This document shows, piece by piece, positions 17,250 through 23,267 of a stretch of 32,000 nucleotides of DNA. The DNA lies in NCBI GenBank assembly GCA_013306035.1, contig JABUBF010000006.1, positions 1 to 32,000 on the forward strand, given 5' to 3'. How positions within the stretch are numbered: position 1 is the first letter of the stretch; every line of letters begins with the position of its first letter. Position numbers and translations under genes: made by a program. The notes below the pieces were generated by a model that saw nothing but the letters and a program-made list of their open reading frames with translations, searched no databases and was not told the DNA's origin. Origin of the DNA: Nitrososphaerota archaeon (GTDB lineage Archaea; Thermoproteota; Nitrososphaeria; Nitrososphaerales; UBA57).

Positions 17250-17365
17250 AATTATGTAGCGTTGCGGTACTTTTTTATTCTTTTCTGTACTTTATTATTT
17301 CGGTCTCGCGACCCGCGGTATTATCTTATGATTTTCCGCAGGCCCGCGGTAGCTCAGCTTGGTAG

Positions 17366-17378
17366 AAATATTGCCAAA
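17366..17378 (+). other. tRNA intron 1 (13 nt, between nt 22/23 in the D stem; boundary can slide 1 nt with the same product)
   Basis: Relaxed BHB: central helix TGGT (17360-63) / GCCA (17373-76), with 3-nt bulges AGA (17364-66) and AAA (17377-79). Removal restores the GAGC half of the D stem. Confidence 0.7.
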
Positions 17379-17393
17379 AGCTTCCGGCTGTAG

Positions 17394-17437
17394 GGTTAAG
17401 CCTTGGCTTATCCGAACAGTTTGCCAAGCACACAGGA
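17394..17437 (+). other. tRNA intron 2 (44 nt, canonical position 37/38)
   Basis: Full hBHBh'. The outer helix is the anticodon stem TCCGG/CCGGA, and the central helix is CTGT (17388-91) / ACAG (17432-35). The bulges are AGG (17392-94) and GAA (17436-38). The inner helix has GT/AC plus 6 bp CTTGGC (17402-07) / GCCAAG (17423-28). Confidence 0.85.
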
Positions 17438-17453
17438 ACCGGACTGTCGTCGG

Positions 17454-17472
17454 AGGGCTTATGCTCGACGAA
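17454..17472 (+). other. tRNA intron 3 (19 nt, between nt 53/54)
   Basis: Central helix CGTC (17448-51) / GACG (17467-70), bulges GGA (17452-54) and AAT (17471-73). The inner hairpin is GGGC/GCTC with a TTAT loop. Confidence 0.75.
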
Positions 17473-17478
17473 TTCAAA

Positions 17479-17499
17479 TTGGATAAAAATCCATGAATG
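17479..17499 (+). other. tRNA intron 4 (21 nt, between nt 59/60)
   Basis: Central helix TTCA (17473-76) / TGAA (17494-97), bulges AAT (17477-79) and TGT (17498-500). The inner hairpin is TGGAT/ATCCA with an AAAA loop. Confidence 0.75.
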
Positions 17500-17583
17500 T
17501 CCGACCCGCGGGACCATTTTTATTAACTATAATTTGATTTTGAAAAAATTATTCACTTTCTATAAATCTATTCGAATTAGAAA

Positions 17584-17600
17584 ATATATATATATAAAAG
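17584..17600 (+). promoter_or_regulatory. TATA-box-like element upstream of the aEF-1alpha gene
   Basis: ATATATATATATAAAAG lies about 30-40 nt upstream of the TTG start at 17628, consistent with archaeal TATA spacing and a short leader. Confidence 0.35.
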
Positions 17601-21030: not shown

Positions 21031-21909
21031 ATGATGAGTCAAACTAATAAAAATAATTCTCGATATATCAGATACATATTATTAATATTTGCATCTCTTT
21101 GGGTTCTATGGCCTATCTCAATTATGATTGAGGAAGGATTTCGTGTAGATATAGGTCCAGCGTTTTCTGGACGTGGAGCTAGTTTTGTTGGGGAATTCTT
21201 CCAAGGACAAGGAGGAATTAGATTCACGACTATTGAATACGTTAAAGCACTTAAAGTAGAAGCCTATCCTAGACTACTTGTTAATAGTAGTATAATAGCT
21301 GTCAGCAGTGTAGTTGTTGCTATCCTTGCAGGGCTTCCTGCTGGTTTCACCATGGCCATGTATAAGTTTCGTGGTAAGACATTCATTACTTATGCGTTAC
21401 TTGCAATGAGAACAATCTCTCCATTTGCAGTATTATTGCCATTCTTCTTGATATATGGAAGACTGGGATTGTTTGATACATATCAGGGTATGGCCTTCGT
21501 TTATCTGATCATTAATTTACCAATAATCACTATGATGATGAGAGGATTCTTTAAAGATATTCCAAAAGAAATATTTGAAGCTGCATTTATGTCTGGCGCA
21601 TCTGACTCGTATATCTTAAGAAAAGTAGCATTACCTTTGGCCTTACCTGGTCTTGCAGCAGCAGCTGTATTTGCTTTTGTTGGTACTTGGAATGAATTCT
21701 TTTATGCATTATTCTTAACTGGCACAGTAACCAAAACCGTTTCACGTGGTGTATGGTCTGGTTTCTCTGAATCAATTGAATCTTTCAAAATCCTCGAATT
21801 TGACGAACTAAATGCAGGTGGCACTCTTGCTATTATTCCCGCAGTTATACTTTCACTTGCAGTTCAAAGATATCTTGCTCGGGGAGTTACTCTTGGTGCT
21901 GCAGAATGA
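21031..21909 (+). CDS. ABC transporter permease (MalG/UgpE/PotC-type)
   Basis: 6 TM segments and the EAA loop EAAFMSGASDSYILRKVALP. Confidence 0.85.
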   Translation: MMSQTNKNNSRYIRYILLIFASLWVLWPISIMIEEGFRVDIGPAFSGRGASFVGEFFQGQGGIRFTTIEYVKALKVEAYPRLLVNSSIIAVSSVVVAILAGLPAGFTMAMYKFRGKTFITYALLAMRTISPFAVLLPFFLIYGRLGLFDTYQGMAFVYLIINLPIITMMMRGFFKDIPKEIFEAAFMSGASDSYILRKVALPLALPGLAAAAVFAFVGTWNEFFYALFLTGTVTKTVSRGVWSGFSESIESFKILEFDELNAGGTLAIIPAVILSLAVQRYLARGVTLGAAE

Positions 21910-23267
21910 TGGAATCACGAAATAATCAAATTGCCATAGCAGTAGCATTAATTCTGCTTCTCGGAACTGTTGTTGTTTATTTTTCACTAGGACCATCTGT
22001 TACTGTTGACGTTCTTCCATCTGGAGAAAACGAATTAATTTCGTTAGCTCAAGAATCAGGTCGATTGAATATATTTGTAGACGATGAAATTTATGACGAA
22101 TCATTTTTCAATTACATAGATAATGAATTTTCTACTAAATATGGTATTGATGTAGAAATCACAACTGGACATTGGTCTGGTATACAGACATCATTGATTA
22201 ATGAAAAAGTTTCTGGACGTAATTCTGGTTCCTTTGATTTAGTTATACTTAATGACGAAGCAACTGCACGTTTAATCGAGAAAAAATTAACATTTTCACA
22301 AACGGGCAGTATTATTTCTGATATTTCGACTAGTCCTGTTACTGACGAAGTACTAAAGTCAAAGATCGCTGGTGTTGATAACGATGGTTCAGGTATAACT
22401 TTGTGGTTTGATGTATATTCTTACATGTATAATTCAGAAGAATTTTATAAATTTGAAAATGTATATTGTTACTTAGGATTAGTTGGCGAAGATGACGACG
22501 ACGACGATGACGACGGTTCAGGAAGTGGAGATGATGACGACGACGAAGACCGATGTCCTACTGCCGAAGATCATGATGACGATGATGACAATAACGGTTC
22601 AGGAAGCGGAAACGATGACGATGATGATGACGAAGTAGAAGGCGTCTTTTTCCCTAGTCCAGTTGACGATAAAGCAGGCGCGGCATTAGTTGTAAATACA
22701 GTCCTTCACTATGGAAGCTCTGGATATTATGAATCATTCTATGACTCTTCATTAGAATCTGAATGGCCAGAATTATTGAACTTTGAAATTGAGGACGAAC
22801 CTGAAATGGAAGGAATGGATGAGTTATTTGGCGAAATTGAACCAGAACTTGATATGAGTTCCATTCTTGAAGTCTTTGACGACGAAGAGGTTCTAGTCGG
22901 ATACTTTAGATACGGCTCCATTTTACTTGAATCAATTCAAGGAGAAATTAGCGATGAGATTGAAGTATATTTCGGCATTGAAGGCAGTGTAAAAACCAGT
23001 GTTCATGCAACCATTCCATTTAATTCTCCAAATAAAGCTGCTGCGACTTTGATGATTAATGAAATCCTTGGCGAAAATTCACAACGACAGATTGCGACGA
23101 TTTACGGAAGTTATCCGTCTGCTAATGCTGAAATGATCGATGATGTATTTGGCAACGCTCAATTCTTTATTCCATTTGATGATTTTTCTGATTCATTATC
23201 TGAATGGCCTTATTATTCTTATCCAATCAACATTCTTGACATGTGGCGTGTATTATTTGAAGGATAA
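21906..23267 (+). CDS. Membrane-anchored extracytoplasmic solute-binding protein with a large poly-Asp insertion
   Basis: The ATGA start/stop overlaps the permease gene. There is an N-terminal anchor IAIAVALILLLGTVVVYF. The C-terminal IPFNSPNKAAATLMINEILGENSQ resembles the conserved SBP family-1 segment (IP..A.N...A..FINFLLS.E.Q). The acidic insert spans 22488-22640. Confidence 0.6.
   Translation: MMESRNNQIAIAVALILLLGTVVVYFSLGPSVTVDVLPSGENELISLAQESGRLNIFVDDEIYDESFFNYIDNEFSTKYGIDVEITTGHWSGIQTSLINEKVSGRNSGSFDLVILNDEATARLIEKKLTFSQTGSIISDISTSPVTDEVLKSKIAGVDNDGSGITLWFDVYSYMYNSEEFYKFENVYCYLGLVGEDDDDDDDDGSGSGDDDDDEDRCPTAEDHDDDDDNNGSGSGNDDDDDDEVEGVFFPSPVDDKAGAALVVNTVLHYGSSGYYESFYDSSLESEWPELLNFEIEDEPEMEGMDELFGEIEPELDMSSILEVFDDEEVLVGYFRYGSILLESIQGEISDEIEVYFGIEGSVKTSVHATIPFNSPNKAAATLMINEILGENSQRQIATIYGSYPSANAEMIDDVFGNAQFFIPFDDFSDSLSEWPYYSYPINILDMWRVLFEG

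Follow-up and report, generated by a model that had tools for sequence, protein, structure and literature searches.

A predicted four-intron tRNA-Tyr(GUA) gene with a six-nucleotide micro-exon in a heterotrophic marine thaumarchaeon

The stretch of DNA analysed here, referred to as the window, is 32,000 nucleotides long and consists of ordinary core chromosome, with genes for ETF, phosphoglucomutases, the cox operon, heme o synthase and EF-1alpha, as well as an ABC transporter, methylmalonyl-CoA mutase, an ammonium transporter and PRPP synthetase. Among its relatives ASW8_bin1 comes closest, with 95% nucleotide identity over 8 kb; this MAG has been assigned to the heterotrophic marine Thaumarchaeota, or pSL12-like clade, with genomes of ~1 Mb (bioRxiv 10.1101/2019.12.22.886556; PMC7300363). 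The host belongs to this clade and is not a Nitrosopumilus-type ammonia oxidiser. Slightly beyond the middle of the window lies a complete tRNA-Tyr(GUA) gene, the features of which are listed in Table 1. The gene had been described as the only GC-rich island, which is incorrect, since positions 60-212 and 22482-22576 equal its GC content at the 80-nt scale. The latter stretch is located inside an Asp-rich ORF (21906-23267), and the former is repetitive, with no ORF called on the + strand; reading it by eye, we take it to be an RGG-type coding repeat on the - strand that runs off the window. A hidden second tRNA at 60-212 was considered and dismissed, as this stretch is a repeat and not a tRNA.

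Table 1. Features of the tRNA-Tyr locus. Exon contents are given in tRNA positions, and a slash within a bulge marks the cut.
Feature	Position	Strand	Description
Upstream inverted repeat	17312..17342	+	Imperfect, conserved, adjoins the tRNA 5' end; candidate for either a leader hairpin or a palindrome close to the promoter
tRNA-Tyr(GUA) gene, complete	17343..17516	+	174 nt, five exons, four introns, encoded CCA; read from the sequence
Exon 1	17343..17365	+	Positions 1-22: acceptor 5' strand, U8, A9, D-stem 5' strand, D-loop, G22
Intron 1	17366..17378	+	Site 22/23, 13 nt, AAATATTGCCAAA; central helix 17360-63 TGGT with 17373-76 GCCA; bulges AG/A and AA/A
Exon 2	17379..17393	+	Positions 23-37: D-stem 3' strand, U26, anticodon-stem 5' strand, C32, U33, G34-U35-A36, G37
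Intron 2	17394..17437	+	Canonical site 37/38, 44 nt; central helix 17388-91 CTGT with 17432-35 ACAG; bulges AG/G and GA/A
Intron 2 segment TTGCCAAGC	17421..17429	+	Complementary to the D-loop GCTTGGTAG at 17357-65
Exon 3	17438..17453	+	Positions 38-53: A38, anticodon-stem 3' strand, variable loop CUGUC, T-stem 5' strand
Intron 3	17454..17472	+	Site 53/54, 19 nt; central helix 17448-51 CGTC with 17467-70 GACG; bulges GG/A and AA/T
Exon 4	17473..17478	+	6-nt micro-exon UUCAAA, T-loop positions 54-59
Intron 4	17479..17499	+	Site 59/60, 21 nt; central helix 17473-76 TTCA with 17494-97 TGAA; bulges AA/T and TG/T
Exon 5	17500..17516	+	Positions 60-76: U60, T-stem 3' strand, acceptor 3' strand, A73, CCA
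T x5	17517..17521	+	Directly 3' of CCA; likely archaeal oligo-T terminator (putative function)

When the four introns are removed, a 77-mer remains that ARAGORN calls tRNA-Tyr(gta) from position 1 to 77. Its 7-bp acceptor stem, CCCGCGG/CCGCGGG, is followed by A73, the encoded CCA and the T-run, and these elements, as well as the sequence and coordinates, are as had been described in the first-pass annotation. T-rich sequence is likewise found 3' of CCA in syntenic relatives. The spliced form folds into a cloverleaf with a 4-bp D stem (GCUC/GAGC), a 5-bp anticodon stem (UCCGG/CCGGA), a 5-bp T stem (GUCGG/CCGAC), a 7-nt anticodon loop with U33, and the T-loop UUCAAAU, and the nucleotides required for tertiary contacts (U8, A14, G18-G19, G15:C48, U54-U55-C56, A58 and G53:C61) are all there. 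The pair C1:G72, together with A73 and the anticodon GUA, forms the set of identity elements for archaeal TyrRS, which differs from the His set, and this full set was found in the spliced sequence. The predicted mature product is a canonical class I tRNA of 77 nt with C1:G72, A73 and an encoded CCA. The Tyr(GUA) identity proposed earlier is borne out by the ARAGORN call on the 77-mer, by the blind alignment described below, and by 31 + 6 + 6 related loci.

The unspliced gene at 17343-17516 gives no tRNA match with either ARAGORN or Rfam, the latter at gathering and at permissive thresholds, and a permissive Rfam scan of 17250-17600 returned only chance matches. That the Rfam tRNA model RF00005 misses the raw gene is expected with four introns inside. 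The same model accepts the one-intron orthologues that were tested (53.9-56.5 bits) and one two-intron orthologue (44.8 bits), and orthologous genes with three or four introns are not accepted. In practice, genes of this kind escape both ARAGORN and Rfam, so that tRNA-Tyr can seem to be absent from these genomes.

The introns were located by aligning the genes to an intron-less tRNA-Tyr template, in which long insertions were free of length cost and the coordinates of the first-pass annotation were not used. Boundaries were subsequently slid, within the range of ambiguity, to the register of the bulge-helix-bulge (BHB) motif, in which the last six exon nucleotides comprise four helix and two bulge nucleotides, and the intron end is built alike. 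A BHB motif was defined as a 4-bp central helix with two 3-nt bulges on opposite strands and a cut after the second bulge nucleotide. In the window, this blind parse recovered the four introns of Table 1, at the same sites and with the same lengths as had been drawn before. The central helix is paired at 4/4 positions at all four junctions, with one G.U pair in junction 1, and a 3-nt bulge lies 3' of each strand. The chance of finding a 4/4 helix in the required register is ~0.02 per junction, and each junction coincides with the exact insertion point relative to orthologues without that intron, which read as exactly joined sequence wherever one of the three non-canonical introns is lacking; for these two reasons the junctions are beyond what chance would produce. 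The BHB rule also fits most of the orthologue introns that were parsed, and a few of these pair fewer than four helix positions. Comparison with the orthologous tRNA-Tyr loci thus upheld the gene identity, the four sites and the BHB geometry.

Around this common core the four introns differ. Intron 1 has no inner helix and a 6-nt loop, and resembles a bulge-helix-loop motif. It is invariant inside the clade of the window and missing at the exact site in 24 of the 31 orthologues, and the 22/23 intron of L002 is 18 nt long and does have a proper inner helix. Intron 2 uses the anticodon stem as outer helix and has only a partial inner helix. Its homologue in all Nitrososphaerota and Bathyarchaeia orthologues is a canonical intron of 44-70 nt. 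Intron 2 also contains a hairpin (17394-17413) with a covarying pair, 54:69 of the alignment, that is U.U, A-U or U-A. Intron 3, missing in 23/31 orthologues, has an inner helix GGGC/GCTC round a tetraloop and no outer helix, and at two of the four pairs of this inner helix both partners have changed in a compensatory manner (G-C to A-U, and C-G to U-A). Intron 4 has the inner helix TGGA/TCCA, in which an A-U pair is replaced by C-G in L004 and L038, and its outer helix, the T stem, forms only once intron 3 has been removed. The 59/60 site is also occupied in Bathyarchaeia and in other Nitrososphaerota. Judged from their predicted pairing, three of the four introns are relaxed forms, and the core of helix plus bulges alone is common to all four.

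The two T-arm junctions share a nucleotide. At junction 3, U54 (17473) takes the third place in the bulge, and at junction 4 it is the first nucleotide to be paired; because both motifs need it, they can never both be canonical at once. The claim that every junction can be drawn with BHB geometry therefore stands as far as the 4/4 core and the 3-nt bulges are concerned, but does not extend to simultaneous canonical motifs at junctions 3 and 4.

Two observations could speak for a real gene that has been parsed wrongly, either with fewer introns, such as one large intron in the T-arm, or with another identity, such as tRNA-His(GUG). The template alignment leaves a 1-nt sliding ambiguity at three junctions, and ARAGORN, when only the anticodon intron was left in, placed this intron one nucleotide off and returned His(gtg). 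However, the BHB rule, with its cut after the second bulge nucleotide, sets the intron at 37/38 and the anticodon as GUA, the combination of C1:G72 and A73 is the archaeal Tyr set and not that of His, and the Hadarchaeota orthologues L003 and L013 are called tRNA-Tyr directly by ARAGORN. The His call was accordingly rejected as an artefact of the 1-nt shift. A single T-arm intron would yield the T-loop UGAAUGU, without U55 and C56, and in orthologues in which 59/60 is the only T-arm intron (L014, L017, L022 and L024), GTCGG-TTCAAA reads as a continuous exon, so that the micro-exon is joined to exon 3. We consider a misparsed gene exceedingly improbable, and continue with the five-exon tRNA-Tyr(GUA) gene.

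Orthologues were collected by searching one genome per GTDB species with the exact 23-mer of exon 1, which yielded 31 loci (L001-L031) from Nitrososphaerota, Bathyarchaeia and Hadarchaeota; the identity of exon 1 across these loci is by construction, exon 1 being the search pattern. The mature sequence is near-identical as well, with the window and L023 differing, in our own comparison, at 6/74 positions, four of which are compensatory T-stem changes, and the canonical introns are homologues that share the segment complementary to the D-loop. One intron per gene is found in 7 of the 31 genomes, two in 6, three in 10, and four in 8. The occupied sites are six in number (22/23, 30/31, 37/38, about 43-45, 53/54 and 59/60), and although some lineages share 22/23, 53/54 and 59/60 with the window, the intron sets differ. 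The exact four-intron set of the window occurs in six genomes (L004, L006, L010, L020, L021 and L031), and L011 and L012 carry four introns in another set (30/31, 37/38, 53/54 and 59/60), with spliced forms that ARAGORN calls tRNA-Tyr. The clade of the window is without the widespread 30/31 intron. Four introns are thus not a one-off, as they occur in 8/31 species-level genomes from the exon 1 search and in two combinations. The six-site series in one orthologous tRNA is a natural series of gain and loss, which could be used to test models of the origin and movement of BHB introns. Judged by sequence likeness, the 22/23 intron may have been born as an intragenic copy of the anti-D-loop segment of intron 2 (Table 1), and if true, this would be a concrete case of the birth of a BHB intron at a new site.

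A decaying or silent tRNA-Tyr pseudogene full of insertions, with a clean copy doing the work elsewhere, would also be missed by standard tools, as this locus is, and a second, intron-poor tRNA-Tyr may be located outside the 32-kb window. However, decay would bring changes in the exons, and this is not what was found. When nine distinct sequences of the clade were aligned, 0/77 exon columns and 22/99 intron columns were variable (Fisher p = 1e-6). The six genomes with the same architecture keep the gene order pterin-4a-carbinolamine dehydratase, tRNA-Tyr, EF-1alpha, at 79-95% nucleotide identity to the window, and exons are invariant over flanks that have diverged to this extent. Moreover, the intron changes are compensatory, every insertion has a 4/4 BHB core, and the CCA, the T-rich tail and the synteny are all kept. 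Among the sequences compared, this shows that the exons are under purifying selection and that the intron changes preserve the predicted structure. Six assemblies, independent of one another and made from different samples, carry the 174-nt gene without a single difference, and the same four-intron design recurs in a further six contigs from marine metagenomes; a metagenome scan for genes with the 22/23 intron likewise returned only this design and no five-intron relatives. Given the invariant exons, the compensatory introns, the six identical assemblies and the six marine contigs, an assembly artefact or a pseudogene is very unlikely. The segment 17343-17516 is, with high probability, a functional four-intron tRNA-Tyr(GUA) gene of a heterotrophic marine thaumarchaeon, a reading that is drawn from comparative sequence analysis.

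Multi-intron tRNA genes with BHB motifs are well known in Thermoproteales and have been documented in Thaumarchaeota. The limit for archaeal tRNA genes has been given as 'a maximum of three introns' (Fujishima & Kanai 2014, PMC4033280) and as 'two or even three' (Chan et al. 2011, PMC3218864), and three introns per gene is also the maximum in the tRNAscan-SE 2.0 paper (PMC8450103), in agreement with the ceiling given in the first-pass annotation. Full-text literature searches found no report of an archaeal tRNA with four introns, and unpublished annotation of such genes is possible. The three-intron tRNAs of Thermoproteales (Pyrobaculum, Thermofilum) are processed by a broad-specificity (alpha-beta)2 EndA, and some of their introns are so close together that one goes before the motif of the next can form (PMC4033280, PMC8450103, PMC3218864). 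In contrast to these genes, which have at most three introns, the gene in the window has four, with a 6-nt micro-exon between two T-arm introns, and it comes from a mesophilic marine thaumarchaeon whose genome is ~1 Mb in size, not from a hyperthermophilic crenarchaeon. The thaumarchaeal set of tRNAscan-SE 2.0 comes from the same phylum and comprises 107 non-canonical introns of the BHB type, for which a clade-specific BHB model was made (PMC8450103), but here too the maximum is three per gene, against four in the window. A further case is the tRNA-Ile(UAU) of Cyanidioschyzon merolae, which is interrupted by introns at 37/38 as well as in the D-stem and the T-loop, and for which RT-PCR showed an ordered removal, the outer introns going before the canonical one; this gene, however, is eukaryotic and nuclear, has no more than three introns, and lacks a pair of T-arm introns round a micro-exon (PMC3728597). 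The kind of gene is therefore known, and what is new is the number of introns, four, and the 6-nt micro-exon between overlapping motifs. In the documented range, the intron ceiling for a single tRNA gene would move from three to four, and one of the four-intron clades has a highly streamlined genome of ~1 Mb, where purging of introns would be expected.

In the processing that we propose, a precursor of at least 174 nt would be transcribed from the tRNA-Tyr locus, archaeal EndA would excise the four BHB introns, and an RtcB-type ligase would rejoin the exons. The mechanism itself, EndA plus ligase, is ordinary, and neither EndA nor RtcB is encoded within the 32-kb window. Since intron 1 is without an inner helix and intron 3 without an outer helix, these two would need an enzyme of relaxed specificity, and the EndA of Thaumarchaeota is of the broad-specificity (alpha-beta)2 type, with activity on relaxed BHB motifs (PMC5829648, PMC4090602). 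In the T-arm, cutting at both introns before ligation would free the untethered hexamer UUCAAA, and the two motifs share U54, so that processing there would have to be sequential. Splicing would proceed stepwise, with intron 3 (53/54) going first and intron 4 (59/60) following, and the restored T stem would then provide the outer helix of a strict BHB motif for intron 4. With a micro-exon placed between overlapping motifs, the order of splicing becomes a sharp experimental question.

Partition-function folding was done for all 15 intermediates. In the full precursor, the probability of the central helix was 0.47 for intron 1, 0.46 for intron 3, and 0.78 for intron 4. When intron 4 was taken out first, the helix of intron 3 dropped to 0.09, and when intron 3 was taken out first, the helix of intron 4 had a probability of 0.33-0.48, with the bulges 90% unpaired. 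These folds suggest that intron 3 would be removed before intron 4. For the canonical junction, nearest-neighbour folding gave a central-helix probability of 0.00 in every intermediate, and the same value was obtained for control orthologues with one, two and three introns, two of which are tRNAs accepted by Rfam. Folding is thus uninformative on the canonical junction, as it fails equally on these controls.

The segment of intron 2 that is complementary to the D-loop has counterparts in the orthologues. A contiguous complement of the D-loop (AGCTTGGTAG), 9-10 nt long and 7-10 nt away from the 3' end of the canonical intron, was found in 23/23 distinct long canonical introns. Beside the window's TTGCCAAGC, the variants are CTACCAAGCT, CTATCAAGCT, CTACTAAGCT, CTACCGAGC, CTACTGAGC, CTATCAGGCT and CTGCCAAGC, which differ by transitions only, each of them keeping a wobble pair, with the D-loop held constant by the exact exon 1 selection. 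Pairing of the D-loop with intron 2 dominates the minimum-free-energy folds of the window precursor and of orthologues with one, two and three introns. Together with the covarying stem of the upstream repeat, this raises the thought that, within a four-intron gene, the D-loop/intron 2 pairing and the upstream hairpin form an obligatory alternative fold, which gates or orders splicing or recruits a modification enzyme. Against this, the constancy of the D-loop follows from the way the orthologues were selected, several lineages have a partner inside the intron itself (GCTTG-like), thermodynamic folds of tRNA precursors are unreliable, and no known factor is implicated. We therefore regard such an obligatory role as rather unlikely. 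A selected alternative fold of the Nitrososphaerota and Bathyarchaeia tRNA-Tyr precursor, made of the canonical intron and the D-loop with adjacent pairing of the anticodon loop, is a similarly tentative proposal; if true, this fold would be in competition with the BHB motifs and would thereby control either the order of splicing or an intron-dependent modification. The four-intron gene with ordinary EndA processing is the reading that we retain.

Several other elements were considered at this locus and rejected. The idea that intron 2 encodes a box C/D guide RNA was dismissed, as neither a C box nor a D box was seen by eye. The 9-nt sequence CCCGCGGTA (17312-20) in the upstream region duplicates tRNA positions 1-9, and a fifth intron of 31 nt was tried there in ten registers; the sole register that pairs is a trivial palindrome, CGCG/CGCG, and the duplicate is lost in L004 and L006. 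Removal of the 5' leader by EndA, with the 3' cut at 17342/17343, was likewise set aside, as inspection by eye found no complementary TGCG-type strand upstream. The upstream inverted repeat may or may not be part of the tRNA system. Its stem changes in a compensatory manner, and reads GCGG/CCGC in the window, ACGG/CCGT in L006, L036 and L037, and GTGG/CCAC in L004 and L038. Finally, intron 1 repeats, in its 3' part, the anti-D-loop segment of its own lineage; introns 1 and 2 both contain TTGCCAA in the window, and both contain CTACCAA in L002.

The canonical intron (37/38) of the tRNA-Tyr(GUA) gene contains a short stretch complementary to the D-loop. All 23 distinct canonical introns found among the 31 species-level orthologous loci (L001-L031) carry such a complement of 9-10 nt, and it lies at a constant spacing from the 3' end of the intron. 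The only substitutions in this anti-D-loop segment are transitions, each of which keeps a wobble pair. In the predicted minimum-free-energy fold, the pairing between D-loop and intron, together with an adjacent GCUGU/ACAGU helix, would replace the bulge-helix-bulge (BHB) motif.

A match to part of this segment occurs in the D-arm intron at 22/23. In the clade of the window, the 3' part of this intron (17372-17378) is identical to the anti-D-loop segment of the canonical intron (17421-17427), both reading TTGCCAA, and in the orthologous locus L002, introns 1 and 2 both contain CTACCAA, which is that lineage's own version of the anti-D-loop segment. These matches suggest that the D-arm intron was derived from an intragenic copy, as seen in two lineages only, where the match could be a coincidence. 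Over all tRNA-Tyr orthologues, six intron sites are occupied. Outside the clade, the Nitrososphaerota MAGs KW1-S08_208 and XS84Bin3 (L011 and L012) have a different four-intron layout, with introns at 30/31, 37/38, 53/54 and 59/60, and a five-intron tRNA-Tyr gene was not found among the orthologues.

Coordinates of features at the tRNA-Tyr locus and in orthologous loci
Feature	Locus	Position	Remark
TATA-like box 1, A/T-rich	window	17271-17279	in 93-nt divergent spacer
TATA-like box 2, A/T-rich	window	17290-17299	in 93-nt divergent spacer
Imperfect inverted repeat	window	17312-17342	together with conserved block that starts at about 17300; last nt is tRNA position -1
Adjacent helix GCUGU/ACAGU	window	17387-91 with 17416-20	
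Anti-D-loop segment	window	17421-17429	pairs with 17357-17365; same element in L001-L031
5S rRNA gene	L005	6228-6348	about 0.5 kb from tRNA-Tyr
5S rRNA gene	L023	614-732	about 5.2 kb from tRNA-Tyr

Immediately upstream of the gene, the imperfect inverted repeat is kept within the clade, with compensatory changes in its stem (GCGG/CCGC, ACGG/CCGT and GTGG/CCAC), and in the window the repeat opens with a 9-nt copy of tRNA positions 1-9. It may represent a structured 5' leader or a palindrome near the promoter. Further upstream, a pterin dehydratase gene (start codon 17249, minus strand) is divergent from tRNA-Tyr. In the spacer between the two genes, the strongly conserved sequence TTTTTTATT is separated by ~26 nt both from the start codon of the dehydratase gene and from the point (about 17301) where the conserved block begins, and it may be a putative bidirectional promoter common to both genes. 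Some of the distantly related orthologous loci, from Hadarchaeota and an unclassified archaeon, have a 5S rRNA gene 0.5-5.2 kb from tRNA-Tyr, a linkage not seen within the 32,000-nt window.

GC-rich repeats were also noted elsewhere in the window. Positions 1-212 hold a tandem-like repeat (ccagaacgaccgccatatcctcc...) that, when the minus strand is read by eye, looks like a candidate Gly/Arg-rich (RGG-type) coding repeat that would extend beyond the window edge. An ORF at 21906-23267, adjoining ABC-transporter permease genes, encodes long poly-Asp runs with GSGSG between them, and this repeat causes a local GC peak, especially at 22482-22576.
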